64,000 nucleotides of DNA from Candidatus Latescibacterota bacterium (lineage in GTDB: Bacteria; Latescibacterota; CBDEFO01). A model generated the notes under the pieces. The model saw nothing but the letters and a program-made list of their open reading frames with translations. It had not been told where the DNA came from and did not search any database. Of the stretch, positions 6,468-57,127 are shown piece after piece (the stretch's first letter is position 1; the number at the start of each line of letters is the position of its first letter). The translations under genes were made by a program, and so were the position numbers. The DNA lies in assembly GCA_965237525.1 (NCBI GenBank), contig CBDEFO010000003.1, forward strand, positions 55,468-119,467, written 5' to 3'.

Positions 6468-7986
6468 AAGCCTTGTGAAATAGTTATGTCCCAGGCAGCG
6501 TCTGAAGCGCCGATTATGGGTCAAAGAGTAGCATATCGTATCGTTTTGCTGTGGAATAAGCAAAATAGTCTTATCAGAGTTCTGGTCAGCAAGGAACAGG
6601 AGCTGTTTGAAGAACAGGATGCACTGTCTTTGACAGACAGGGCACACATAGACGCTTTCCCCCTTCTTATGAAAGATACAAGCCTCTTGAGATTCTGTAC
6701 TGTTGCAACAAGATTCAACTGTTCATTCAGTGAGGCTGGTCCTCTGTAACGGGCTCGTCCCATACCGTATTGTTGCCTGGCTTCAGCAAAGATATGTTCA
6801 CTGCGTTTACGGAGTCTCCGGGAGAGTTTGTAGTCAGCTGTTAATGAGATAGACCGTGCATGATTTCTGGCTTTCGCCTCTCGCACTTTTCTATCCCGTT
6901 CGGCCTGAATATGTGCTGAATTTGTCTTGTTTTTCCATGTAGGAATCGGTTCAATCTTCTCATCGGCTCGCAGAGGAATATGGGGTATGATTCCCCGGTC
7001 AAGTACATCAGCGATAAAATTACCAGAACCGTAACCGGTATCGGCACTAAGTGTCTGAATGTCTTTGGGCATGGTCTATGTTTCAAGGTCATCTACCATC
7101 TTAAGGGCACTTTCGGGCTCTGCTGTCCCTGTCGCCTGCGTGCCCTGAGTCTCAAGGATTACTCTGCTTTTTGTGTCGATCAGATCATGGCCCATAAACG
7201 AGAGAAAAGCCCCTTTGCCCTTCGATTTGCTGTATAAGCGCGCGTCGGGGTCTGTAGTCGAACGGTGTGTTTGGTTCGTCCACTTTTCACCATGAAAGTC
7301 TTTATCCTGAGGATGCCCGGACCTACCCTTTGTCTTATCACCTTCAAAACCGATTCCCTTGAGATAATCATCAAGAGAAAAAGGGGGTTCTATCGGCTCA
7401 ATACTTTTCACTGAAGCATCAGCTTGTATCTGAGTGCCGTCGACACTAAGGTGTTTACCGCTCACAACACCGACATCTATGCAACACTGGACTACCTGAC
7501 GCATTATCCGTTCAAACAACCCACTGGATGCCCACTTGTGATTGCGAAGCTTGTTGATCGTGCTCCTATCCGGAACCGCATCATCAAATGTCTGATGACA
7601 AAACAACCGATATGCCGCATGCATCCCCACTTCCTGACAGAGCCGATTCTCACTCAAATTATACAGATAGCCAATAAGGATCATTCGAACAACTAATTCA
7701 GGATCAATACCGGGTCTGCCATTGTCAGGGCAATAACAATCTGATACAACGTCTCGTACAAATGAAAAATCAACTGCCTCATCAATCTGACGAAGGATAT
7801 GATCCTCGGGAACTAAATCCTCCATCTGAAAATAGTGAAACATCGGATTTGTCTGTTCCTGCTTTTGTGGGGTCATTGTTTCCTCCATGTATAATATTAT
7901 CAATAACATAATATAATACATCGGAGCTGCTTTATCAATGCTTGTTCTATACTACTTTCTGAATCTAAGGGTTTTTCACAAGGCTT
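6468..7986 (-). mobile_element. IS element copy 1 (1519 bp, IS1182/IS5-superfamily-like)
   Basis: Perfect 13-bp terminal inverted repeats AAGCCTTGTGAAA / TTTCACAAGGCTT. Flanked by a TTAA direct repeat (6464-6467 and 7987-7990). Same unit as 23418-24936, 32652-34170 and 37599-39117. Confidence 0.9.
6521..7921 (-). pseudogene. IS transposase with premature stop
   Basis: Same frame as the 466-aa transposase of the other copies. C at 7076 (G in the other copies) changes Tyr TAC to TAG (DDLET* then TMPKDIQ). This splits it into the 281-aa and 183-aa track ORFs. Confidence 0.85.
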
Positions 7987-10622: not shown

Positions 10623-10902
10623 TCAAGTTGCGATAAAGCCCTGACGTTCTAATCTCTTCAGGACTCTGGAGAATATCTTTCTCGTCGTTGCTGACATATT
10701 AGCTAGTTCCTGATGGATCGGACGGTTCTATAGCATTATCCCATCTTGAACGCTCACTCGGTGGACACAAGCCAATTGTGTCGGTTCTACTCCGTTCGGC
10801 AAGTACGATAATTGTAGCATATATCTCTGCTTCTATAAATACTACAGCAGTATACAAGAAATCCAGAATACTGTCAAGTCTTTTTTGTCGGAGCAGTATC
10901 AT
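10623..10902 (-). pseudogene. Crp/Fnr-type regulator C-terminal (HTH) remnant
   Basis: A short frame at 10623-10697 reads MSATTRKIFSRVLKRLERQGFIAT*, the recognition-helix text of Crp/Fnr HTH domains. The adjoining track ORF 10699-10902 lies in another frame. No intact N-terminal sensor domain is attached. Confidence 0.35.
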
Positions 10903-18562: not shown

Positions 18563-18703
18563 GAACTAAGACGATGAAACGTAATTCCGCGCTGGGAGAT
18601 TCCTGCCAGGCTCGAACTCAGACGTAAAGATACGACGTTTTGTCAAGATGGCACCCGCTTTATCCGGGCCCTTTTTGAACGCTTATGTGACTATGGAACT
18701 TGT

Positions 18704-18743
18704 CCCCGATTGAAGCCCCAATAGATTCAATTGGGGGTCGGGG
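18704..18743. repeat. CCCCGATT-type palindromic element (compound copy)
   Basis: CCCCGATTGAAGCCCCAATAGATTCAATTGGGGGTCGGGG has an outer pairing CCCCGA/TCGGGG and an inner pairing CCCCAAT/ATTGGGG. It is intergenic, at the edge of the high-GC block. Confidence 0.6.
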
Positions 18744-18980
18744 AAACCCAGAGCCTTCAGCCGAGAGCGAAGCAAAGTGCTGCGCAGGGTCCGCCAAGTG
18801 ATCTCGTAGACAGTGCGGTTTCCCATGGTAAGCTGACTACCCTCTATGATCTTGTCAAAACTATTTTGAACCGATACTTAATCCACGGGATCCCGTGTGT
18901 AGATCAGAATACGGAGAGAAAATGTGCAGGAAGACCTGAATATGAATAGAAATAGAGGAAGGATAATCTGGGCAGAGCTC

Positions 18981-19568
18981 CTACCAGTAAATATAGCGGG
19001 TCAGTTTCCGTAAATCCTCTCGAGGAAGTTTTTCAAGATCGGGAATTACGTAGCGATTATCGAGGACATCCAGAAGAATCTTGCCTTTATCGCCGTGATC
19101 TTGAGTCTTATTGTGCTGCCAGAGCATCTCAAACTGTCTTCTGCCACTTTCGTGGCTTGTTTGCTCCCCATCAAAGCGGCCGCGCCGCCCCTGCTGTGTC
19201 TCCGCATCGAAAAAGAGGAGTCCATATTTCCATTCTACGTTGTAAATCTTTGTTATTTCATACTCAAAGTAGTGACGCGATAAGGACTCAAGGAGGAGTT
19301 CCTCAGCCTCCCTTGAAAAGGGTTTAGGGTCTATTATAACCCCTATCTCATTTTCTTTATTGTTCTCGTCGTGATAACGCAGAGAAATATAACGATCAGG
19401 AGAGGACACGGGAAAGGCCAAGACAGCAAAGACCCCTCTGTAGAGTTCTCCCTGACCATCCTCATCCTTGACGTGGGTGTGAAGAAGACTGAAGATGCCC
19501 TTGAAAATTTCGCAGTTTTCGGGGGTTAGTATGTACACCCCCGTCCTCGGTCGGTGGCTTTCTATCAT
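18981..19568 (-). CDS. DUF1854-like protein associated with the upstream ABC exporter
   Basis: 195-aa ORF 27 nt downstream of the ABC gene. It ends in RYIYW and matches my recollection of the small DUF1854 proteins that accompany ABC exporters. This assignment is from memory only. Confidence 0.45.
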   Translation of the reverse strand: MIESHRPRTGVYILTPENCEIFKGIFSLLHTHVKDEDGQGELYRGVFAVLAFPVSSPDRYISLRYHDENNKENEIGVIIDPKPFSREAEELLLESLSRHYFEYEITKIYNVEWKYGLLFFDAETQQGRRGRFDGEQTSHESGRRQFEMLWQHNKTQDHGDKGKILLDVLDNRYVIPDLEKLPREDLRKLTRYIYW

Positions 19569-19594
19569 CTCCCTTTTTCTCCGATTCTTTGGTC

Positions 19595-21826
19595 TTAATC
19601 AGATTCAATAGCCGCAAGCTCAGTCTGGATTCGAACCAATCTACTGTAGATGCCCTCCTTTGCCATAAGTTCATCGTGATTGCCGTGTTCGGCTAATGTC
19701 CCGTCGTCTATGACGTAGATACGATCGGCACCTCTTAAAGTGGAGAGTCTGTGAGCAATAGCTATGGTCGTACGACCTTTGGAAAGGACCGCTAAAGCCT
19801 CCTGTATCTGTCGCTCCGACTCTGTATCCACGCTGGAGGTGGCTTCGTCCAGAATAAGGATGGCGGGATCGCAGAGAAGGGCGCGAGCGATTGAAACGCG
19901 CTGACGCTCTCCCCCTGAAAGCCCCGATCCTCTTTCCCCCAACATAGTGTCGTATCCGGATGGGAGACGCATAATAAAGTCGTGGGCGTTGGCGGCTTTG
20001 GCAGCGTTTATTATCTCCTCCGGAGTTGCGCCCGGCTTGCTGTAGGCGATGTTTTCCGCCACGCTTGCCCGGATCAGAAAAGGCTCCTGGAGCACAAGCC
20101 CAACGTGGCTTCTGAGGTCATGACTTGATACGTCTCTTACATCCTTGCCGTCTATGCGCACGGAGCCCTCCTGCACATCGTAAAATCTGCACAAAAGGTT
20201 TATGAGCGTAGTCTTGCCGCTTCCGCTCTTGCCCACTATTCCTATCATCGCTCCTGACTCTATGGAGATGGAGACACCTTTTATAACGGGACTGTAGGGA
20301 TCGTATCCGAAGACGACGTCGTCAAATTCTATGTCGCCTTTGACCTCCGGCATAGGTTCGGCATCTGGATCGTCTTTGATTCCTGGTTCTGTATCTAATA
20401 TCTCAAAGATGCGCTGGCTTGAAGTCATAAAGGACGTCAGCCAGTTGGAAAAGAACGTAAGTCTGGATAGGGGACTGTAGAACATCCCTATGTAACCTAA
20501 AAACGCCATCAGGGTCCCCAGCGTTATCTTATCCCCGAGGACGTCTTTTCCGCCGACGTACCATACGATGAGTCCACCGAGACTGAATACAAAAGCCATC
20601 ATAGGGTAGAACGTCCCACTGCTCATTTCCACTTTACGGCTGCTATCCCTCAGATAGCCGATTCTATTTAGAAAGCGACTCTTTTCCCTGTCTTCCTGGG
20701 CAAACGCCTTGACCAGACGGATCCCGGAGAGGACGCCGTACAGCATCGAGGAAAACTTAGACCGGCTGTCCCTGATCTTGAATTGTTTGGGATAGATGTA
20801 TCGCCAGAAGACTACCGTCCCAAGTATGACGAACGGGATGGGGATCAATATGTAGAAAGCAAGGCTCGCATTGAGATGAAAGAGCATCCCTCCTATGGCA
20901 AAGATAAGGATTATATTGACGAGGAACCCCTGAGTTGCTTGATCTATAAATCCCCGCAGTTCCTCTACATCCTGACTTACGCGGCTCATTAAGTCTCCCG
21001 CCTGCATCTTGTCGTAGTAGTCCACGGACATCCTCTGGAGCTTGTCAAAAAGCTGTCTCCTGACATCGTATGCAATCTGCGTCCCCACCTTGCTCGAAAG
21101 GCGGTTTATGAGGATATTTACAGAGTTTCTGAAAACATGCGCCCCGGCCAGCGCCGCCACTATGAGCAGTAGCCACTCCGTGTGAGTCTGCTCTGTCAGA
21201 ACGTCATCTACCAGTATCTTCGTCAAATATGGAGGGAGCATATCCATACCGACTCCTGCAAACACCAACAGGAAAAGGACAATTGCCCACATCAGGTGTC
21301 CCCGCATCATCTTTATGATCCTGAACAGAACCGCTCCCTGCTTTATGCATTTCGGACAGGGAGCGTTAGGATCGGGAAGCGTTAAGCCACATTCGGGACA
21401 GACATTTGGATCGGGTGCAAGCAGAGCCTCCTTTTGAATATCCCTGTTATCTTTGAGACGTTTAAGCTGTGAAAGGACCCTACCGAATCGCTCCCGATAG
21501 CCGTTGGAGAAGCGAACCAGATCCAGGTGAAGGCCGTCCACTGAAGTCTGAAGGCAGGTACTCCCCACAGTGCTTCGAAGTTTAAAGTTCTCTGTCTCTT
21601 TGAACTTGAAGGGTCCGACTATGGGAACTTCTGGGGATTCTGCTATAGCGGCCACGTGTTCCGAGGTAGCCACAAGCCAGACGCAGGTCATCTGGCCGTG
21701 CTGGCTGAGGTCTCCCTCTGCGGCGATAAGGATGTCGTCCTCTTTAATCTGGGCTTGGTCGAGGCGCTTCCGGATGGCCTTGGGGATTCCATCTTGAGAA
21801 GAGAGGACTATAAGATCGTTGTTCAT
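19595..21826 (-). CDS. ABC exporter (fused TMD-NBD, MsbA-type) with about 170-aa N-terminal extension containing a zinc ribbon
   Basis: Walker A GKSGSGKTT, signature LSGGERQR, Walker B ILILDEATS, with six TM segments before the NBD. The N-terminal extension carries CPECG...CPKC. Confidence 0.9.
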   Translation of the reverse strand: MNNDLIVLSSQDGIPKAIRKRLDQAQIKEDDILIAAEGDLSQHGQMTCVWLVATSEHVAAIAESPEVPIVGPFKFKETENFKLRSTVGSTCLQTSVDGLHLDLVRFSNGYRERFGRVLSQLKRLKDNRDIQKEALLAPDPNVCPECGLTLPDPNAPCPKCIKQGAVLFRIIKMMRGHLMWAIVLFLLVFAGVGMDMLPPYLTKILVDDVLTEQTHTEWLLLIVAALAGAHVFRNSVNILINRLSSKVGTQIAYDVRRQLFDKLQRMSVDYYDKMQAGDLMSRVSQDVEELRGFIDQATQGFLVNIILIFAIGGMLFHLNASLAFYILIPIPFVILGTVVFWRYIYPKQFKIRDSRSKFSSMLYGVLSGIRLVKAFAQEDREKSRFLNRIGYLRDSSRKVEMSSGTFYPMMAFVFSLGGLIVWYVGGKDVLGDKITLGTLMAFLGYIGMFYSPLSRLTFFSNWLTSFMTSSQRIFEILDTEPGIKDDPDAEPMPEVKGDIEFDDVVFGYDPYSPVIKGVSISIESGAMIGIVGKSGSGKTTLINLLCRFYDVQEGSVRIDGKDVRDVSSHDLRSHVGLVLQEPFLIRASVAENIAYSKPGATPEEIINAAKAANAHDFIMRLPSGYDTMLGERGSGLSGGERQRVSIARALLCDPAILILDEATSSVDTESERQIQEALAVLSKGRTTIAIAHRLSTLRGADRIYVIDDGTLAEHGNHDELMAKEGIYSRLVRIQTELAAIESD

Positions 21827-22091
21827 TTTTTTATTCTTGTCCCTATTAAAAAACAGTTTCGCACATAACCCGTCGGGGAACTCCCAATGTAGGATAGTTC
21901 CCTACTTTGTGCCGAAACTGTCAAATTAACGCAAACAAAACAATATGTTGGTGAATTTCTAGCCGACAATTAATATGAAAATTAAGCAAAAGTCGTCTCT
22001 TCGTCAAGCTGAAAGTGCAGATAGACTTAAAATTGGTAATACAGAACACAGACAGTTCAAACTTTAGATCTCAATACCAGCAGTCGCATTA

Positions 22092-22418
22092 TTACTGAAA
22101 ATGAACGATCTTTGAGAATGACTCGGGGTCAAGTGAGGCTCCTCCTAACAGCCCGCCGTCTATATTATCCTTCTCCATCAAGTCCGATATATTATCAGGT
22201 TTGACAGAGCCGCCGTATATTATTCTCACGGAGTCGGATGTACAGCTATCGTACATGTCCAAGCAATACCTTATGCAGGAGTGCACCTCCTCGGCCTGTT
22301 GGGGCATCGCTCCCCTGTTATAATCCATCAGGGATTCAAAGAGAATTTTCAGTAGGTGGAAAGCTTCGGCCGTTAGGTCGGAGCTTTTACATTTGGTGTT
22401 ACCTATATGCTCCACCAC
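22092..22418 (-). pseudogene. chimeric ORF: duplicated 3' end of tpiA fused to unrelated sequence
   Basis: 22085-22297 is about 85-90% identical by eye to the tpiA 3' end (25472-25690), reading PQQAEEVHS...[42 protein letters not shown]. 22297-22425 matches 24996-25115, the tail of the small-peptide gene plus the convergent intergenic region. Confidence 0.7.
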
Positions 22419-22838
22419 ATAAAATGCTAACTGACAGCCGACTGGGAGACGAAATTGTTACTTGCTGCCTTGGAAAAGCTTCCGCTTTCGACAAGATCAC
22501 AGAAGATCTTCAGACTCTCTGGAAGCATCTTTAGGTGCGAATTCCAATATGAAATGTACAGTGCCGTCATATTTTCATAATGAAATATTTCTATTGCATT
22601 GCGCATCTACAAGCGCGGTATAACTCGATATTCAGGCGATCACTATAAGTAAACTAAAAGGCTGTAACTCTATGTTATTACACTATTTACTCTGACGAGA
22701 TATGAGGACTTTAATATGACCTTTTACGATTAGAGGTTGCTGTTCAACTGTTGGCACAAATGTTGCACTAATACTATTATGAACGGCACGAAACACAGAC
22801 AATTCAAACTTTAAATCATATAAGGGAGGTGAAAGACC

Positions 22839-22934
22839 GTGAAATTACTAATGCTGATAGAAGGTATAAGTCTGATTGTGGCAGTAGCAGCGTTTGAGAT
22901 GTATGCCTACAACAGCCTCGCTGCCCTGTTCTAA
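22839..22934 (+). CDS. 31-aa hydrophobic peptide, array copy 1 (MKLLMLIEGISLIVAVAAFEMYAYNSLAALF)
   Basis: GTG start 7 nt after GGGAGGTG, TAA stop. The ORF is identical in copies 1-3. It is below the track's size cutoff. Confidence 0.55.
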   Translation: MKLLMLIEGISLIVAVAAFEMYAYNSLAALF

Positions 22935-23024
22935 CCCATCAGGGTTGTAGATTGCTGAAATATTATTGAGCGGCACGAAACACAGACAATTCAACTTTAA
23001 ATCATATAAGAGAGGTGAAAGACC

Positions 23025-23120
23025 GTGAAATTACTAATGCTGATAGAAGGTATAAGTCTGATTGTGGCAGTAGCAGCGTTTGAGATGTATGCCTACAACA
23101 GCCTCGCTGCCCTGTTCTAA
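23025..23120 (+). CDS. 31-aa hydrophobic peptide, array copy 2
   Basis: 96 nt identical to copy 1. The SD is AGAGGTG, 7 nt before the GTG. Confidence 0.55.
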   Translation: MKLLMLIEGISLIVAVAAFEMYAYNSLAALF

Positions 23121-23210
23121 CCCATCAGGGTTGTAGATTGCTGAAATATTATTGAGCGGCACGAAACACAGACAATTCAACTTTAAATCATATAAGGGAG
23201 GTGAAAGACC

Positions 23211-23306
23211 GTGAAATTACTAATGCTGATAGAAGGTATAAGTCTGATTGTGGCAGTAGCAGCGTTTGAGATGTATGCCTACAACAGCCTCGCTGCCCTG
23301 TTCTAA
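23211..23306 (+). CDS. 31-aa hydrophobic peptide, array copy 3
   Basis: 96 nt identical to copy 1. The SD is GGGAGGTG, 7 nt before the GTG. Confidence 0.55.
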   Translation: MKLLMLIEGISLIVAVAAFEMYAYNSLAALF

Positions 23307-23417
23307 CCGATCAGGGTTGTAGATTGCCCAATATTATTGAGCGGCACGAAACACAGACAATTCAACTTTAAATCGTATAAGAGAGGTGAAAGACTGTGAC
23401 AACTGTGACATTACTAA

Positions 23418-24936
23418 AAGCCTTGTGAAATAGTTATGTCCCAGGCAGCGTCTGAAGCGCCGATTATGGGTCAAAGAGTAGCATATCGTATCGTTTTGCT
23501 GTGGAATAAGCAAAATAGTCTTATCAGAGTTCTGGTCAGCAAGGAACAGGAGCTGTTTGAAGAACAGGATGCACTGTCTTTGACAGACAGGGCACACATA
23601 GACGCTTTCCCCCTTCTTATGAAAGATACAAGCCTCTTGAGATTCTGTACTGTTGCAACAAGATTCAACTGTTCATTCAGTGAGGCTGGTCCTCTATAAC
23701 GGGCTCGTCCCATACCGTGTTGTTGCCTGGCTTCAGCAAAGATATGTTCACTGCGTTTACGGAGTCTCCGGGAGAGTTTGTAGTCAGCTGTTAATGAGAT
23801 AGACCGTGCATGATTTCTGGCTTTCGCCTCTCGCACTTTTCTATCCCGTTCGGCCTGAATATGTGCTGAATTTGTCTTGTTTTTCCATGTAGGAATCGGT
23901 TCAATCTTCTCATCGGCTCGCAGAGGAATATGGGGTATGATTCCCCGGTCAAGTACATCAGCGATAAAATTACCAGAACCGTAACCGGTATCGGCACTAA
24001 GTGTCTGAATGTCTTTGGGCATGGTGTATGTTTCAAGGTCATCTACCATCTTAAGGGCACTTTCGGGCTCTGCTGTCCCTGTCGCCTGCGTGCCCTGAGT
24101 CTCAAGGATTACTCTGCTTTTTGTGTCGATCAGATCATGGCCCATAAACGAGAGAAAAGCCCCTTTGCCCTTCGATTTGCTGTATAAGCGCGCGTCGGGG
24201 TCTGTAGTCGAACGGTGTGTTTGGTTCGTCCACTTTTCACCATGAAAGTCTTTATCCTGAGGATGCCCGGACCTACCCTTTGTCTTATCACCTTCAAAAC
24301 CGATTCCCTTGAGATAATCATCAAGAGAAACAGGGGGTTCTATCGGCTCAATACTTTTCACTGAAGCATCAGCTTGTATCTGAGTGCCGTCGACACTAAG
24401 GTGTTTACCGCTCACAAGACCGACATCTATGCAACACTGGACTACCTGACGCATTATCCGTTCAAACAACCCACTGGATGCCCACTTGTGATTGCGAAGC
24501 TTGTTGATCGTGCTCCTATCCGGAACCGCATCATCAAATGTCTGATGACAAAACAACCGATATGCCGCATGCATCCCCACTTCCTGACAGAGCCGATTCT
24601 CACTCAAATTATACAGATAGCCAATAAGGATCATTCGAACAACTAATTCAGGATCAATACCGGGTCTGCCATTGTCAGGGCAATAACAATCTGATACAAC
24701 GTCTCGTACAAATGAAAAATCAACTGCCTCATCAATCTGACGAAGGATATGATCCTCGGGAACTAAATCCTCCATCTGAAAATAGTGAAACATCGGATTT
24801 GTCTGTTCCTGCTTTTGTGGGGTCATTGTTTCCTCCATGTATAATATTATCAATAACATAATATAATACATCGGAGCTGCTTTATCAATGCTTGTTCTAT
24901 ACTACTTTCTGAATCTAAGGGTTTTTCACAAGGCTT
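23418..24936 (-). mobile_element. IS element copy 2 (1519 bp)
   Basis: Same inverted repeats as copy 1, with CTAA direct repeats at 23414-23417 and 24937-24940. Confidence 0.9.
23471..24871 (-). CDS. IS1182/IS5-superfamily DDE transposase (466 aa, intact)
   Basis: The N-terminus (NPMFHYFQMEDLVPEDHILRQID) matches the DUF772-type transposase N-domain. The C-half carries LSADTGYGS and SEHIFAEARQQHGMGRARYRG, a DDE/YREK-like region. Confidence 0.9.
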   Translation of the reverse strand: MYYIMLLIILYMEETMTPQKQEQTNPMFHYFQMEDLVPEDHILRQIDEAVDFSFVRDVVSDCYCPDNGRPGIDPELVVRMILIGYLYNLSENRLCQEVGMHAAYRLFCHQTFDDAVPDRSTINKLRNHKWASSGLFERIMRQVVQCCIDVGLVSGKHLSVDGTQIQADASVKSIEPIEPPVSLDDYLKGIGFEGDKTKGRSGHPQDKDFHGEKWTNQTHRSTTDPDARLYSKSKGKGAFLSFMGHDLIDTKSRVILETQGTQATGTAEPESALKMVDDLETYTMPKDIQTLSADTGYGSGNFIADVLDRGIIPHIPLRADEKIEPIPTWKNKTNSAHIQAERDRKVREAKARNHARSISLTADYKLSRRLRKRSEHIFAEARQQHGMGRARYRGPASLNEQLNLVATVQNLKRLVSFIRRGKASMCALSVKDSASCSSNSSCSLLTRTLIRLFCLFHSKTIRYATL

Positions 24937-25099
24937 CTAATGCTGATAGAAGGTATAAGTCTGATTGTGTGTACATCGTGTATGGTGTATGTCAACAGCA
25001 ACATCGTTGCCCTGTTTTAATCCCTCAGGGATTCAAAGAGGATTTTCAGTAGGTGGAAAGCTTCGGCCTTTAGGTCGGAGTTTTTACATTTGGTGTTAC

Positions 25100-25464
25100 C
25101 TATATACTCCACCACAGAAAATATGGATAATCAACAATTAGATTGTAAATGAAGCCTACCACTATTCCCAGTATCACAAAAGCCGCTACTCCCGATATGA
25201 ATCCTGCGGGCTTTCCGAATCTGTTGGTGACCTTAGATACAATTTTTATCTGTCCAAGAATACTACCACTCCCGGAAGAAAGAGAAAAACCCGTTCAGAG
25301 GCTGTACACCACGGACAATTCGGTGTCTGAGGATGGTTGATATTACAGCAAGACACTGCCCCTGACCAGAGCCAGGTGCATCCGCACCTGAAGATAAACA
25401 CGCACAACGGAGTAATAAAGACTAAAGTGAAGACACCCCAGAATAACTTTTCTATAACTGTCAT
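25100..25464 (-). pseudogene. Cys-rich small membrane protein, apparent frameshift
   Basis: Track ORF 25246-25464 (FRCGCTWLWSGAVSCCNINHPQTPNCPWC) stops at 25246. A 1-nt shifted frame then continues IVSKVTNRFGKPAGFISGVAAFVILGIVVGFIYNLIVDYPYFLWWSI* to 25100. Family not recognised. Confidence 0.4.
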
Positions 25465-25478
25465 CCGCGCAGGTCGCC

Positions 25479-26255
25479 TTATTGCTGAAAATGAACGATC
25501 TTTGAGAAAGATTCGGGGTCGAGTGAGGCTCCGCCTATCAGCCCGCCGTCTATATTATCCTCCTCCATCAAGTCCGATATATTATCAGGCTTGACGCTCC
25601 CTCCGTAGATTATTCTCACTGCGTCGGCTGTCTCGCTGTCGTACATGTCCAAAAGCAAGTACCTTATGTAGGAGTGCACCTCCTCGGCCTGTTGGGGCGT
25701 CGCTGTCTTGCCCGTTCCGATAGCCCAGACCGGCTCGTAGGCTATCGCAAGCTTTTTGACCTCATCAGAGGAGATCCCTGCCAACCCGTTCGATATGTGA
25801 TCCCTCACCACATCGAACGTTTTTCCTTCTTCTCTCTCCTCCAACTTTTCGCCGATGCACATAACAGGGGTCAGGTTATGTCTCAATATAGCCATAACCT
25901 TCTTATTGACCTCATCATTGCTTTCTTTGAAATATTGTCTCCTCTCGCTGTGACCCGCTATCACATAGCTACATCCAATATCTTCAAGCATAGACGGTGA
26001 CACTTCTCCTGTGAAGGCTCCTTCGTCCTCCCAGAACAGGTCCTGGGCTCCTAAACCGATGTTTGATCCCTTTATTACCTTGCCTACCGCATCCAAAGCC
26101 GTAAAGGGGGGGGCAATGAAAACCTCTGCATTGTCACTTACATCCTTCACTAAGTCCACGATCTTTTTTGATGTCTCTACTGCCTCTCCCACAACCTTAT
26201 TCATCTTCCAGTTCCCGCCTATTACGGGGATCCTTGACATGCCTTTTCTCCTCAA
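25479..26255 (-). CDS. tpiA: triosephosphate isomerase
   Basis: [54 protein letters not shown]. The likely start is MSRIPV at 26240. Confidence 0.9.
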   Translation of the reverse strand: MRRKGMSRIPVIGGNWKMNKVVGEAVETSKKIVDLVKDVSDNAEVFIAPPFTALDAVGKVIKGSNIGLGAQDLFWEDEGAFTGEVSPSMLEDIGCSYVIAGHSERRQYFKESNDEVNKKVMAILRHNLTPVMCIGEKLEEREEGKTFDVVRDHISNGLAGISSDEVKKLAIAYEPVWAIGTGKTATPQQAEEVHSYIRYLLLDMYDSETADAVRIIYGGSVKPDNISDLMEEDNIDGGLIGGASLDPESFSKIVHFQQ

Positions 26256-32651: not shown

Positions 32652-34170
32652 AAGCCTTGTGAAAAACCCTTAGATTCAGAAAATAGTATAAAACAAGCAT
32701 TGATAAAGCAGCTCCGATGTATTATATTATGTTATTGATAATATTATACATGGAGGAAACAATGACCCCACAAAAGCAGGAACAGACAAATCCGATGTTT
32801 CACTATTTTCAGATGGAGGATTTAGTTCCCGAGGATCATATCCTTCGTCAGATTGATGAGGCAGTTGATTTTTCATTTATACGAGACGTTGTATCAGATT
32901 GTTATTGCCCTGACAATGGCAGACCCGGTATTGATCCTGAATTAGTTGTTCGAATGATCCTTATTGGCTATCTGTATAATTTGAGTGAGAATCGGCTCTG
33001 TCAGGAAGTGGGGATGCATGCGGCATATCGGTTGTTTTGTCATCAGACATTTGATGATGCGGTTCCGGATAGGAGCACGATCAACAAGCTTCGCAATCAC
33101 AAGTGGGCATCCAGTGGGTTGTTTGAACGGATAATGCGTCAGGTAGTCCAGTGTTGCATAGATGTCGGTCTTGTGAGCGGTAAACACCTTAGTGTCGACG
33201 GCACTCAGATACAAGCTGATGCTTCAGTGAAAAGTATTGAGCCGATAGAACCCCCTGTTTCTCTTGATGATTATCTCAAGGGAATCGGTTTTGAAGGTGA
33301 TAAGACAAAGGGTAGGTCCGGGCATCCTCAGGATAAAGACTTTCATGGTGAAAAGTGGACGAACCAAACACACCGTTCGACTACAGACCCCGACGCGCGC
33401 TTATACAGCAAATCGAAGGGCAAAGGGGCTTTTCTCTCGTTTATGGGCCATGATCTGATCGACACAAAAAGCAGAGTAATCCTTGAGACTCAGGGCACGC
33501 AGGCGACAGGGACAGCAGAGCCCGAAAGTGCCCTTAAGATGGTAGATGACCTTGAAACATACACCATGCCCAAAGACATTCAGACACTTAGTGCCGATAC
33601 CGGTTACGGTTCTGGTAATTTTATCGCTGATGTACTTGACCGGGGAATCATACCCCATATTCCTCTGCGAGCCGATGAGAAGATTGAACCGATTCCTACA
33701 TGGAAAAACAAGACAAATTCAGCACATATTCAGGCCGAACGGGATAGAAAAGTGCGAGAGGCGAAAGCCAGAAATCATGCACGGTCTATCTCATTAACAG
33801 CTGACTACAAACTCTCCCGGAGACTCCGTAAACGCAGTGAACATATCTTTGCTGAAGCCAGGCAACAACACGGTATGGGACGAGCCCGTTACAGAGGACC
33901 AGCCTCACTGAATGAACAGTTGAATCTTGTTGCAACAGTACAGAATCTCAAGAGGCTTGTATCTTTCATAAGAAGGGGGAAAGCGTCTATGTGTGCCCTG
34001 TCTGTCAAAGACAGTGCATCCTGTTCTTCAAACAGCTCCTGTTCCTTGCTGACCAGAACTCTGATAAGACTATTTTGCTTATTCCACAGCAAAACGATAC
34101 GATATGCTACTCTTTGACCCATAATCGGCGCTTCAGACGCTGCCTGGGACATAACTATTTCACAAGGCTT
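32652..34170 (+). mobile_element. IS element copy 3 (1519 bp)
   Basis: Same inverted repeats, with TTAA direct repeats at 32648-32651 and 34171-34174. Confidence 0.9.
32717..34117 (+). CDS. IS1182/IS5-superfamily DDE transposase (466 aa, intact)
   Basis: Differs from copy 2 at one residue (FSFIRDVV versus FSFVRDVV). Confidence 0.9.
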   Translation: MYYIMLLIILYMEETMTPQKQEQTNPMFHYFQMEDLVPEDHILRQIDEAVDFSFIRDVVSDCYCPDNGRPGIDPELVVRMILIGYLYNLSENRLCQEVGMHAAYRLFCHQTFDDAVPDRSTINKLRNHKWASSGLFERIMRQVVQCCIDVGLVSGKHLSVDGTQIQADASVKSIEPIEPPVSLDDYLKGIGFEGDKTKGRSGHPQDKDFHGEKWTNQTHRSTTDPDARLYSKSKGKGAFLSFMGHDLIDTKSRVILETQGTQATGTAEPESALKMVDDLETYTMPKDIQTLSADTGYGSGNFIADVLDRGIIPHIPLRADEKIEPIPTWKNKTNSAHIQAERDRKVREAKARNHARSISLTADYKLSRRLRKRSEHIFAEARQQHGMGRARYRGPASLNEQLNLVATVQNLKRLVSFIRRGKASMCALSVKDSASCSSNSSCSLLTRTLIRLFCLFHSKTIRYATL

Positions 34171-37230: not shown

Positions 37231-37620
37231 TTGAATATGTCCCGCAAGAGTCATAAGAACCTTGTATTATCGCTTACTGCCTCTGTGATCTTACACTCCA
37301 TAGTGTTTTTTCTCGCCTATATATTGAGAGGTGAAAGGGAGGATCAGGTATATAAGGTGCAGTTCAGACCTTATGGGCCTGCTCCTGCAAAGCCTCTATA
37401 TCCTGCGGAAAAACCTTCAATCCCCAAAGTGGCTGTTGAGATGCTCCCTAAAAAGGGAAAACCCGAACTGCCCCCGGAGGGATTTGCGGCTATTGATGAT
37501 ACTAGCAGATGGAAGGATGAACTCCGAGAAAGCGCCTTGAGTGCCGTCGAGGCTGAGGGACTTGTGGAGACCGCAGGCTCAAAAAGAGGGATCATTAAAA
37601 GCCTTGTGAAAAACCCTTAG
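37231..37620 (+). pseudogene. TonB-like protein N-terminal part, 3' end replaced by IS copy 4
   Basis: N-terminal TM segment (LVLSLTASVILHSIVFFLAYIL) and a Pro/Lys-rich linker (RPYGPAPAKPLYPAEKPSIPK...KGKPELPPEGF). There is no C-terminal TonB domain. The last residues (KSLVKNP*) are read from the IS inverted repeat. Confidence 0.45.
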
Positions 37621-39117
37621 ATTCAGAAAGTAGTATAGAACAAGCATTGATAAAGCAGCTCCGATGTATTATATTATGTTATTGATAATATTATACATGG
37701 AGGAAACAATGACCCCACAAAAGCAGGAACAGACAAATCCGATGTTTCACTATTTTCAGATGGAGGATTTAGTTCCCGAGGATCATATCCTTCGTCAGAT
37801 TGATGAGGCAGTTGATTTTTCATTTATACGAGACGTTGTATCAGATTGTTATTGCCCTGACAATGGCAGACCCGGTATTGATCCTGAATTAGTTGTTCGA
37901 ATGATCCTTATTGGCTATCTGTATAATTTGAGTGAGAATCGGCTCTGTCAGGAAGTGGGGATGCATGCGGCATATCGGTTGTTTTGTCATCAGACATTTG
38001 ATGATGCGGTTCCGGATAGGAGCACGATCAACAAGCTTCGCAATCACAAGTGGGCATCCAGTGGGTTGTTTGAACGGATAATGCGTCAGGTAGTCCAGTG
38101 TTGCATAGATGTCGGTGTTGTGAGCGGTAAACACCTTAGTGTCGACGGCACTCAGATACAAGCTGATGCTTCAGTGAAAAGTATTGAGCCGATAGAACCC
38201 CCTGTTTCTCTTGATGATTATCTCAAGGGAATCGGTTTTGAAGGTGATAAGACAAAGGGTAGGTCCGGGCATCCTCAGGATAAAGACTTTCATGGTGAAA
38301 AGTGGACGAACCAAACACACCGTTCGACTACAGACCCCGACGCGCGCTTATACAGCAAATCGAAGGGCAAAGGGGCTTTTCTCTCGTTTATGGGCCATGA
38401 TCTGATCGACACAAAAAGCAGAGTAATCCTTGAGACTCAGGGCACGCAGGCGACAGGGACAGCAGAGCCCGAAAGTGCCCTTAAGATGGTAGATGACCTT
38501 GAAACATACACCATGCCCAAAGACATTCAGACACTTAGTGCCGATACCGGTTACGGTTCTGGTAATTTTATCGCTGATGTACTTGACCGGGGAATCATAC
38601 CCCATATTCCTCTGCGAGCCGATGAGAAGATTGAACCGATTCCTACATGGAAAAACAAGACAAATCCAGCACATATTCAGGCCGAACGGGATAGAAAAGT
38701 GCGAGAGGCGAAAGCCAGAAATCATGCACGGTCTATCTCATTAACAGCTGACTACAAACTCTCCCGGAGACTCCCTAAACGCAGTGAACATATCTTTGCT
38801 GAAGCCAGGCAACAACACGGTATGGGACGAGCCCGTTATAGAGGACCAGCCTCACTGAATGAACAGTTGAATCTTGTTGCAACAGTACAGAATCTCAAGA
38901 GGCTTGTATCTTTCATAAGAAGGGGGAAAGCGTCTATGTGTGCCCTGTCTGTCAAAGACAGTGCACCCTGTTCTTCAAACAGCTCCTATTCCTTGCTGAC
39001 CAGAACTCTGATAAGACTATTTTGCTTATTCCACAGCAAAACGATACGATATGCTACTCTTTGACCCATAATCGGCGCTTCAGACGCTGCCTGGGACATA
39101 ACTATTTCACAAGGCTT
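37599..39117 (+). mobile_element. IS element copy 4 (1519 bp), flanks do not match
   Basis: Same inverted repeats. The left flank is TTAA (37595-37598) but the right flank is CTAA (39118-39121). Confidence 0.9.
37664..39064 (+). CDS. IS1182/IS5-superfamily DDE transposase (466 aa, intact, most diverged copy)
   Basis: Several substitutions relative to copies 2 and 3 (NKTNPAH, RRLPKRSEH, DSAPCSS, SSYSLL). Confidence 0.9.
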   Translation: MYYIMLLIILYMEETMTPQKQEQTNPMFHYFQMEDLVPEDHILRQIDEAVDFSFIRDVVSDCYCPDNGRPGIDPELVVRMILIGYLYNLSENRLCQEVGMHAAYRLFCHQTFDDAVPDRSTINKLRNHKWASSGLFERIMRQVVQCCIDVGVVSGKHLSVDGTQIQADASVKSIEPIEPPVSLDDYLKGIGFEGDKTKGRSGHPQDKDFHGEKWTNQTHRSTTDPDARLYSKSKGKGAFLSFMGHDLIDTKSRVILETQGTQATGTAEPESALKMVDDLETYTMPKDIQTLSADTGYGSGNFIADVLDRGIIPHIPLRADEKIEPIPTWKNKTNPAHIQAERDRKVREAKARNHARSISLTADYKLSRRLPKRSEHIFAEARQQHGMGRARYRGPASLNEQLNLVATVQNLKRLVSFIRRGKASMCALSVKDSAPCSSNSSYSLLTRTLIRLFCLFHSKTIRYATL

Positions 39118-55665: not shown

Positions 55666-56098
55666 TCCTCTTTTAGACTGTCCAGTTCATCACCAGCCAT
55701 CTTTAGATACTCCCAGCCCCTATTCTCCTCTTCGTCGCCTATCCAGGTCCCGAAATTGGCGTCTATCCACGAACCCGGAAAGATCCTCTTCAAACGCGTC
55801 CCTTCAGGGTGCATCTTTAGAAAAGAATTAAAAGTTATAGTCTTTAATCCTTTGGTGTTACTCAACTTCTTGTACAGCGCCCTTAGAAACTCGGCTCCAT
55901 TTTCCCTGTAATTCTCCCAGGCGTTCTCACCATCCAATATTATCGAAACTATGTGCGCTCCACTGTCTGCCTCAATGCCGTCTCTTATATTCAAAAGGCG
56001 CCCCACGAAGTCCTCCGCCGCTTTTTTGGCATCCCATGTTTGATACACAAACCCTATAAGGTCGGACAATCTGTGGTCTCTGAAGAAGAGCTTTATGT

Positions 56099-56138
56099 CC
56101 CCGATTGAACCCCCCCCCGATTAAATCGGGGGGGGGGG
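56099..56138. repeat. CCCCGATTGAA + C9-GATTAAATC-G11 palindromic element inside coding sequence
   Basis: On the plus strand, CCCCGATTGAA-CCCCCCCCC-GATTAAATC-GGGGGGGGGGG. This is the site of the GH57 frame change. Confidence 0.7.
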
Positions 56139-57127
56139 ATTTGTCTCCATCTCCGAAGCTGTACATCCGAAAGGGCGTTCCACTTTTTCCGCTTAGCTTG
56201 AGAGACTCCCTCAAAACTCCGTCGTCGCTTGCCATCCAATCTATCCCCAAACCGGCGGCGATATTCCCAACTTCCTGGCTTATCGAACCTTCAGATGGCC
56301 ACATTCCAGAAGGAGTTTTTCCAAGAATCCTATTGTGAAACTCTAAAGCTTCCACAATCTGAGCCCTGGCATCCCCTGGCCTTTTTAACTTCAAGCGGGG
56401 GAGATTAGCTTGCGGAAGACCCTCCCTTGCTGAATCAGTATCGCACAAAAGCGGCAATATGGGATGATGAAAGGGACTAGTAGATATTTCGATCCTTTCT
56501 TCATCCCACAATCTTCTGTAAATCTGGGTTATCTTGCCTATAATCTCTCTTTCCAACTCAAGGAGGACCCTCTTATTGTCCTCAGAATAGCCCCTTCCCT
56601 TCCTCAAAAGTTCCACTATCTGATCTTTCTCTTTCAGACTATTCCCGCACCACGCCAGATTGAAGCAGACCTGAAGGTCCAGAAAATCCTCCTTCTTAAA
56701 CCTCTGTACTGCCCTTTCCAGATTATCCCCGTCTCTACGTCTCATCGCGTAGAGTTCATAATATCTCTTAAAGGGTTTTATCATATTTTCAAAATTTGCG
56801 TGGAAGAAATTTTCCAAGATAAAGACCTTATCATCCAAAGAGAGTTCTTCGGCTTCCTTTTTCGTCAGCTCCCAGAATTTATCGCTGGCCTTTCCCTCAG
56901 CGTAATCCTTCAACTGGACTAAAAGCGATGGGACCAAATTAAACGTCACCCTCACCTCCTCGCATTCATCCACGATAGCTGCCATATCGTAATAATCCTT
57001 AATACCGTGCAGATACACCCATGGCAGAATGTACTCCCCTGAGGAAAGGTCCTTATAAAATGGCTGGTGCATGTGCCACAAAAACGCCACATAGAGCGGA
57101 TGCCCCGATTTTGTCGAAGCATCCACG

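Follow-up and report, generated by a model that had tools for sequence, protein, structure and literature searches.

The 64,000-nucleotide stretch of Candidatus Latescibacterota DNA described here (referred to below as the window) contains a tandem array of very short genes, pepA and pepB, which we interpret as an operon of predicted membrane-resident micropeptides whose units recombine unequally and whose dose would vary with copy number. We judge this interpretation to be somewhat better than an even bet, its main rivals being a type I-like toxin and a non-functional young open reading frame (ORF). As far as the sequence comparisons go, the locus is a real, unannotated small-ORF family that has no detectable relative and is confined to one species in the collections searched.

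Organization of the array and its predicted products

Tandem Repeats Finder reports a single array in the window, located at 22775–23399 on the plus strand and consisting of 3.4 copies of a 186-bp unit (97% matches, score 1171), and a repeat finder also recovers three in-register 186-nt copies (repeat family D1). Each of these three units contains a GTG-start ORF of 31 codons (pepA copies 1–3, at 22839–22934, 23025–23120 and 23211–23306, all on the plus strand), and the ORF listing shows that all three are identical and encode MKLLMLIEGISLIVAVAAFEMYAYNSLAALF. Each is preceded by a Shine-Dalgarno (SD) sequence ending 6 nt before the GTG codon, which is GGAGGTGA for copy 1 (22825–22832) and copy 3, and GAGGTGA for copy 2. 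We compared these with the regions upstream of 38 long ORFs of the window, using the complement of a generic 16S 3' tail as the reference; SD use is visible in the genome generally, and the peptide genes match over 7–8 nt, tying with the best site in the window.

The fourth unit carries a diverged paralogue, pepB, split by an insertion sequence (IS). Its 5' part (23396–23417, plus strand) reads GTG ACA ACT GTG ACA TTA CTA A… and ends in the left CTAA (23414–23417), and the 3' part (24937–25020, plus strand; sequence and ORF list) resumes with the right CTAA (24937–24940), continues as …MLIEGISLIVCTSCMVYVNSNIVALF and stops at 25018–25020. In the IS-free alleles of two other assemblies (L005 and L001, introduced below) there is a single CTAA and pepB is an intact 33-aa ORF, MTTVTLLMLIEGISLIVCTSCMVYVNSNIVALF. 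The pepA and pepB types share a ~100-nt identical leader plus the N-terminal coding stretch and differ in their C-terminal halves; neighbouring units are separated by a 90-nt spacer, and the spacers have unit-specific differences (GGGAGG versus AGAGG, CCCATC versus CCGATC, and GCTGAAAT versus GCCCAAT). Public gene calls on two ENA contigs (L005 and L007) place no gene between tpiA and a lysR fragment and thus skip all units.

A promoter-like pair, TTGGCA (22751)-18 nt-TATTAT, lies before unit 1 (22751–22780, plus strand). It is a consensus match only, but the promoter scan finds no other plus-strand pair near the array that matches at 10 of 12 positions, and the internal units retain TATTAT alone. 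The site sits in the former upstream region (22607–22775) of the lysR fragment. The predicted leader is ~52 nt long and A-rich, with a minimum free energy of -7.6 kcal/mol (z 0.07) and with the SD unpaired in the centroid structure. Terminator and folding scans of the array identify no terminator between units, and folding reveals a strong intrinsic one after the last gene (GAAAGCUUCGGCC-UUUA-GGUCGGAGUUUUU; 25047–25095, plus strand), in which a hairpin is followed by a U-run; the segment 25015–25095 folds at -28.2 kcal/mol (z -4.43), none of 200 shuffles folds as well, and an A-run on the 5' side makes the terminator potentially bidirectional.

These observations agree with much of an earlier sequence-only reading of this stretch, which had described identical 31-aa peptide genes in tandem that are absent from the ORF track, a strong SD before each, a promoter at unit 1 only (here as a consensus match), a polycistronic layout, and a diverged fourth paralogue split by an IS with a CTAA duplication. 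Three other uses of the unit were considered and set aside. An antisense ORF of 48 aa has a TTG start and no SD and is shortened to 20 aa in unit 3. An integron cassette is not indicated, as the spacer has only a 3-bp hairpin in place of an attC site and no integrase is encoded by the 10 array-adjacent genes scanned with Pfam, the only part of the window scanned for one. A structured RNA was dropped because the two strands of the unit fold unremarkably relative to shuffles (z -1.2 and -0.3) and Rfam gives no match at E values up to 1 across 18–30 kb.

The predicted peptides are strongly hydrophobic (grand average of hydropathy, GRAVY, 1.5–1.7), with a helical hydrophobic moment of 0.02–0.09 and a net charge of about -1; 12 of the 15 residues of LLMLIEGISLIVAVA are hydrophobic by the rule of Fozo et al. 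2010 (PMC2887945), and the pepB product additionally bears a CTSC motif. AlphaFold2 models one uninterrupted helix of 29 residues (2–30; mean pLDDT 94.5), and a single transmembrane helix in a protein of under 50 aa is predicted, so that the check on transmembrane character and amphipathicity proposed by the sequence-only reading returns a single, non-amphipathic helix. We propose that the locus is a small SD-led, terminator-closed operon encoding peptides of 30–34 residues, each of which would fold as one alpha-helix, hydrophobic and slightly acidic but not amphipathic, and of sufficient length to cross a membrane. Transcription would start upstream of unit 1, each cistron would be translated from its own exposed SD, and the peptides would reside as small membrane proteins in the cytoplasmic membrane of the cell that makes them, with copy number setting the peptide dose. 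There they might act on a membrane partner or, when abundant, be toxic to the membrane.

Database searches with the peptides identify no relatives, in agreement with the earlier statement that no described family has this sequence. There are no matches in Pfam, NCBIfam or PADLOC at E values up to 1–10, none among PDB sequences, and a single PHROGs match at E 0.14 that we treat as chance. A search of 1.84 billion representative proteins yields none at E values up to 0.001, at the low power expected for a 31-aa query, and one of 5.8 billion proteins yields none with pepA and pepB joined end to end to reach the 40-aa minimum. Plasmids (tblastn) and viral contigs (motif scan) have none, and exact-product look-ups of the peptide and of TpiA return no record. 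The search of genomes and metagenomes that had been suggested was made with a degenerate motif; among one genome per GTDB species (596 Gb of genomes) it finds exactly one locus, that in L001, and three matches in JGI metagenomes were rejected as unrelated sequences, lying inside larger ORFs or of other composition. The next-best homologues of the flanking genes beyond the species are 67% (the adjacent ATP-binding cassette, or ABC, protein) and 64% (TpiA) identical, and there is no intermediate relative in the collections searched.

Four alleles of the array

Three further assemblies are of the same species and are 96.5–99.3% identical to the window. One (OZ252149.1, here L001) is a 4.54-Mb chromosome labelled Candidatus Latescibacterota bacterium; both flanks of its array align collinearly with the window, at 96.5% nucleotide identity, and it is therefore essentially the same species. 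Its gene order is the ABC gene start, ~270 nt, the leader, pepA (MKLLMLIEGISLIVAVAAFEMYAYNSVATLF), a 90-nt spacer of the same design as that between units in the window, an intact pepB (MTTVTLLMLIKGISLIVCTSCMVYVNSNIVALL), the terminator, an intact gene for a 126-aa membrane protein, and tpiA. In the window the ~720 bp between unit 1 and the divergent ABC gene (start at 21826) are instead a mosaic of gene fragments. The two other assemblies are ENA contigs, found through exact or near-exact ABC and TpiA proteins. The first (L005; ERZ25072054 contig_131, 99.3% identical) has the same patchwork and three units with no IS, namely pepA, a chimera with a pepB N-terminus and a pepA C-terminus, and an intact pepB. 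The second (L007; ERZ25067264, a 483.7-kb contig) has one unit, a chimera of the opposite kind (pepA N-terminus and pepB C-terminus), and also lacks the IS.

Unit number is thus one in L007, two in L001, three in L005 and four in the window, and all four combinations of N- and C-termini are present. Alignment of the 10 units with MAFFT places the chimera breakpoints within a stretch that is identical in all of them (…ATTACTAATGCTGATAGAAGGTATAAGTCTGATTGTG), which is the signature of unequal homologous recombination. We conclude from these alignments that the units recombine unequally, with the shared stretch as the recombination substrate, and that unit number shifts quickly. By the same comparisons the window is the largest allele, consisting of three very recently amplified, identical copies of pepA and an IS-inactivated pepB. 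This disagreement in copy number among four assemblies could alternatively indicate that the short repeat was mis-assembled in the window, but we regard such an artefact as extremely improbable: the array is less than 700 bp and would be spanned by single long reads, its copies carry unit-specific spacer differences, and what sets the other assemblies apart is clean recombinant junctions and an IS that is either missing or present with a proper target duplication, as expected of real alleles.

The allelic variation raises a more speculative prospect, that of a recombination-driven cassette system acting as a contingency locus for micropeptides. A shared leader and N-terminal module would have its C-terminal modules and copy number shuffled at high frequency, such that co-existing strains of the species would differ in how much of a new membrane-active peptide they make and in which combinations; the peptide would be a toxin directed either at self or at competitors. 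We consider this a long shot.

Coding capacity and the nature of the predicted product

The micropeptide interpretation requires that the ORFs be translated, and on sequence grounds we think it reasonably probable that they are. A strong SD is present at the same spacing in every unit of every strain; pepA and pepB differ by just two indels, of 9 nt and 3 nt, both of which are in frame (MAFFT); and of the six frames, that of the peptide scores as the most hydrophobic in each diverged C-terminal half (1.16 and 1.36 on a GRAVY-type scale, with the others at or below 0.51). The open leader, the terminator that closes the operon and the confidently predicted helix point the same way. The perfect conservation of the ORF, offered by the sequence-only reading as a sign of translation, does not serve this purpose. 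Whole units are 97–99% identical with their spacers included, and the copies are therefore merely young, their identity not being evidence of constraint. Of the pattern anticipated among relatives, the retention of the SD is found in all units of all strains, but only two of the six substitutions relative to L001 are synonymous.

The alternative that there is no functional product, the frames being incidental or very young and lying in a recombination-prone repeat of duplicated intergenic DNA under weak or no selection, seems to us rather unlikely, although several observations lend themselves to it. The sequence is confined to one species, the genome and metagenome scan having yielded L001 and three chance matches. 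The six substitutions between the window and L001 in the two ORFs (two synonymous and four non-synonymous) are near neutral. An IS sits in one copy, L007 has collapsed to a single chimera, and pseudogene debris lies nearby, all of which suggest relaxed selection. On the other side are the 7–8-nt SD, which is correctly spaced in all units and shared by both old paralogues, the in-frame indels, the frame-specific hydrophobicity of two diverged halves, and the dedicated terminator. By our own count the ORFs are also less diverged between L001 and the window (~3%) than the spacer (7–10%), with numbers too small for showing purifying selection; the density of variable sites (~4 of 96 ORF columns against 5 of 67 spacer columns) does not differ significantly.

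Several points weigh against the micropeptide interpretation itself. The non-synonymous changes include a Glu-to-Lys charge reversal within the hydrophobic stretch of the pepB product, and with no homologue outside one species in the collections searched, purifying selection cannot be demonstrated. Recombination within identical in-frame sequence keeps ORFs open automatically, so that intact chimeras are weak evidence, and by our arithmetic 17 diverged codons would stay open by chance about 44% of the time ((61/64)^17). The candidate promoter at unit 1, a consensus match, lies within a patch that is absent from L001. Finally, the region resembles a scrapyard, with fragments of tpiA and lysR, a frameshifted neighbour and an IS, and this would fit relaxed selection too.

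The sequence-only reading also drew a parallel with tandem type I toxin loci. In such an arrangement the peptides would be membrane-depolarising self-toxins, each repressed by an antisense RNA that the spacer following its ORF would encode, as Sib represses Ibs. Fozo et al. 2010 found new type I toxins by searching for short hydrophobic ORFs in tandem within one intergenic region (PMC2887945), and the locus has these generic features, being made up of short unannotated ORFs that have a hydrophobic stretch and lie in tandem in one intergenic region (PMC2887945). The resemblance to ibs-sib, ldr-rdl and zorO/zorP-orz extends to very hydrophobic, unannotated peptides of ~19–35 aa encoded head to tail in one intergenic region, to a copy number that varies among strains, and to similarity that reaches beyond the ORF (PMC2887945, PMC9860968). 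Aromatic and polar residues abound at the C-terminus (YAYNS…F), and promoter-like sites on the minus strand of each spacer (TTGTCT-16-AATAAT and TTCACG-17-TATGAT) face back over the ORF. If the gene is costly, selection against it could account both for the disruption of pepB by the IS and for the reduction of L007 to a single unit.

The likeness does not go much beyond small size, hydrophobicity and tandem arrangement, however, and we think a toxin of this kind unlikely. The antisense promoter-like sites are weak (9 of 12 positions), in a region with 13 promoter-like matches against 8.1 expected by chance; no minus-strand terminator was found, neither strand of the unit is structured, and Rfam has no match. 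ZorO and TisB have long repressive 5' untranslated regions (PMC9860968), in contrast to the 52-nt A-rich leader here, which leaves the SD exposed (z 0.07), and the 90-nt unit spacing contrasts with the >400 and >250 nt typical of such loci (PMC2887945). The peptides have a net charge of -1 and no cluster of charges at the C-terminus, no known toxin family (among them Hok, Ldr/Fst, Ibs, TisB, ShoB, Zor and TxpA) matches in Pfam, NCBIfam or PADLOC at E values up to 1–10, and it would be strange for a toxin free of repression to be present in three identical copies that are all strongly translatable. Relative to ibs-sib, ldr-rdl and zorO/zorP-orz, the array has no sequence-detectable antitoxin RNA, a short open leader with a strong exposed SD, and 186-bp units that are apparently co-transcribed, and its acidic peptides lack a charged C-terminus and have no homology to those toxins.

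A second parallel, with PSM-alpha and aureocin A70, was not borne out, and we consider it very unlikely that the peptides are leaderless antimicrobials or cytolysins, of the two-peptide bacteriocin or PSM/aureocin A70 type, that leave the cell through the adjacent ABC transporter. There is a superficial case, in that two paralogous ~30-aa leaderless peptides are encoded in one operon beside an ABC exporter, and PSM-alpha, aureocin A70 and enterocin L50 likewise involve several paralogous leaderless peptides of 20–45 aa whose coding sequences adjoin one another on one transcript. The peptides of those systems are amphipathic, cationic and served by dedicated genes for export and immunity, whereas the ones here are uniformly hydrophobic and acidic and lie next to an exporter of an unrelated family. 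For PSM-alpha3 and delta-toxin the hydrophobic moment is 0.44–0.60 and the charge +1 or +2, against 0.02–0.09 and -1 here. No immunity gene is evident at the locus, the only candidate neighbour being frameshifted while the peptides stay intact.

The transporter itself, to which the sequence-only reading had pointed, gives no support for a link with the peptides. It is indeed nearby, but it is on the opposite strand and divergent from the array, with ~720 bp of gene fragments between the two in three of the four assemblies. The encoded ABC exporter is 743 aa long, of which ~165 aa form an N-terminal extension, and its gene is followed by one for a DUF1854 protein (18981–21826, minus strand). 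Pfam identifies only ABC_membrane and ABC_tran domains and no C39 peptidase, and the protein aligns end to end with the NCBIfam model for a cyanophycin-metabolism-associated ABC protein (605 bits, below the cut-off of 880); no cyanophycin synthetase is encoded by the 10 array-adjacent genes scanned with Pfam, to which the search for one was confined. The same architecture of 730–790 aa occurs at 50–67% identity in metagenome-assembled genomes labelled Omnitrophota, KSB1, Planctomycetes and Zixibacteria, and is thus found across phyla. In the one more distant contig that was read (L006; ABC homologue 67% identical) the neighbours are different and the ABC and DUF1854 pair has no peptide ORF nearby. 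A double-glycine-leader bacteriocin is not indicated either, as the transporter has no C39 domain and the peptide has no leader or GG site.

There are also parallels with small single-pass membrane proteins that serve as accessory or regulatory subunits, such as KdpF, AcrZ, MgtR/MgtS and those of the sarcolipin type, which have a similar length, a single continuous helix and an ordinary SD; the GRAVY and hydrophobic moment of KdpF and sarcolipin are in the same range as those of the peptides. Genes of the KdpF, AcrZ and MgtR/MgtS type usually occur as single copies, within their partner's operon or next to it, and are shared among genera. The array differs in having no partner gene in its operon, a distribution limited to one species, and a variable copy number; its neighbours (the ABC protein with DUF1854, and a Cys-rich membrane protein) are encoded on the opposite strand, and three of the four assemblies show this linkage broken or frameshifted. 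A retained single-pass membrane micropeptide nonetheless appears to be the most economical reading of the peptide profile.

Genomic context and implications

The element interrupting pepB (23418–24936, minus strand) is 1519 bp long and is of the IS1182/IS5 type, as indicated by Pfam, NCBIfam and inverted-repeat pairs I1–I4. It has perfect 13-bp terminal inverted repeats (AAGCCTTGTGAAA) and encodes a 466-aa DDE transposase (23471–24871) with Pfam DUF772 and DDE_Tnp_1 domains, scoring 264 bits with the NCBIfam IS1182 model (just below the cut-off of 270) and 151 with IS5_4 (above the cut-off of 140). The DDE transposase, inverted repeats and short target duplication are those of an IS5/IS1182-type element. 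The window has four copies that are 99–100% identical (6468–7986, 23418–24936, 32652–34170 and 37599–39117). Three of the four have a 4-bp duplication of CTAA or TTAA, two of the three copies outside pepB being flanked by TTAA duplications, and the element thus targets YTAA. In copy 1 the transposase is split into two ORFs (6521–7072 and 7076–7921). The flanks of copy 4 do not match (TTAA on one side and CTAA on the other), suggesting that IS copies have recombined with each other. Insertions or IS-adjacent deletions also vary among strains, since the L005 sequence corresponding to position 10647 adjoins an IS end and the window lacks an IS there.

The mosaic upstream of unit 1 begins with a remnant we refer to as 'unit 0' (22037–22070, plus strand), a copy of the peptide-gene leader (GAACACAGACAGTTCAAACTTTAGATC) with no ORF behind it; blastn-short matches 22045–22066 at 95%, and the leader motif is at 22045. 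In L001 the corresponding sequence runs straight into pepA, and comparison of the two suggests that recombination between two copies of the leader probably removed the patchwork from L001. Next is a 229-nt piece of the 3' end of tpiA, a pseudogene fragment (22083–22311, minus strand; repeat families D4 and D6) that is 88% identical to tpiA at 25473–25704 and that in L005 is included in a 108-aa ORF with a Pfam TIM match in the public gene call. It is followed by a second pepB 3' end (…ATCGCTCCCCTGTTATAA) with its terminator region (22305–22425, plus strand; repeat family D5), 93% identical to 25002–25122, and by an N-terminal fragment of a LysR-type regulator of 59 codons (22427–22606, minus strand; Pfam HTH_1, E 2.4e-7). 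The junction of the tpiA and pepB pieces resembles the joint of a tandem duplication of 25002–25704. The tpiA fragment is 12% diverged from tpiA, as compared with 3.5% between strains, indicating that the patchwork is older than the strain split.

On the other side of the array, and convergent with it, is a gene for a small Cys-rich membrane protein (25100–25464, minus strand; ORFs and allele comparison), which is frameshifted by a change of GGG to GG near 25246. The protein (…CGCTWLWSGAVSCCNINHPQTPNCPWC…) is 126 aa and intact in L001 (6397–6777, plus strand), and it has no significant Pfam, PADLOC or PHROG match. The identical 1-nt frameshift is present in the window, L005 and L007, and the gene is therefore a real lineage-specific pseudogene. 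A complete tpiA follows (25479–26240, minus strand; ORFs and Pfam).

Two further features of the window lie away from the array. A pair of 44-nt GC-rich palindromes at 18701–18744 and 56096–56139 (TGTCCCCGATTGAA…GGGGGTCGGGGA) are intergenic and 80% alike, and are candidates for a REP-like element or for a terminator that the two sites share. The segment 15548–18562 (plus strand) encodes an HpcH/HpaI-type lyase, an ATP-grasp_2 subunit with weak citrate-binding matches, and a CoA-ligase alpha-type subunit; these could be a malyl-CoA lyase with malate thiokinase, or a citryl-CoA lyase with citryl-CoA synthetase, and such an assignment would bear on the carbon metabolism of this uncultured lineage.

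Small hydrophobic proteins routinely escape annotation, and almost nothing is known of them in candidate phyla. What is new here is a small-peptide family with no sequence relative, the general kind, small membrane peptides, being already known. Within one species, the four natural alleles capture expansion, contraction, chimera formation and IS inactivation in a putative micropeptide family. If the ORFs are not translated, the locus is a caution that recent duplication alone can yield strong SDs and identical tandem ORFs. If they are, the alleles would provide a natural series for the effects of dose and module on fitness of a membrane micropeptide, and a new family would be added to the small set known outside the Proteobacteria and Firmicutes.

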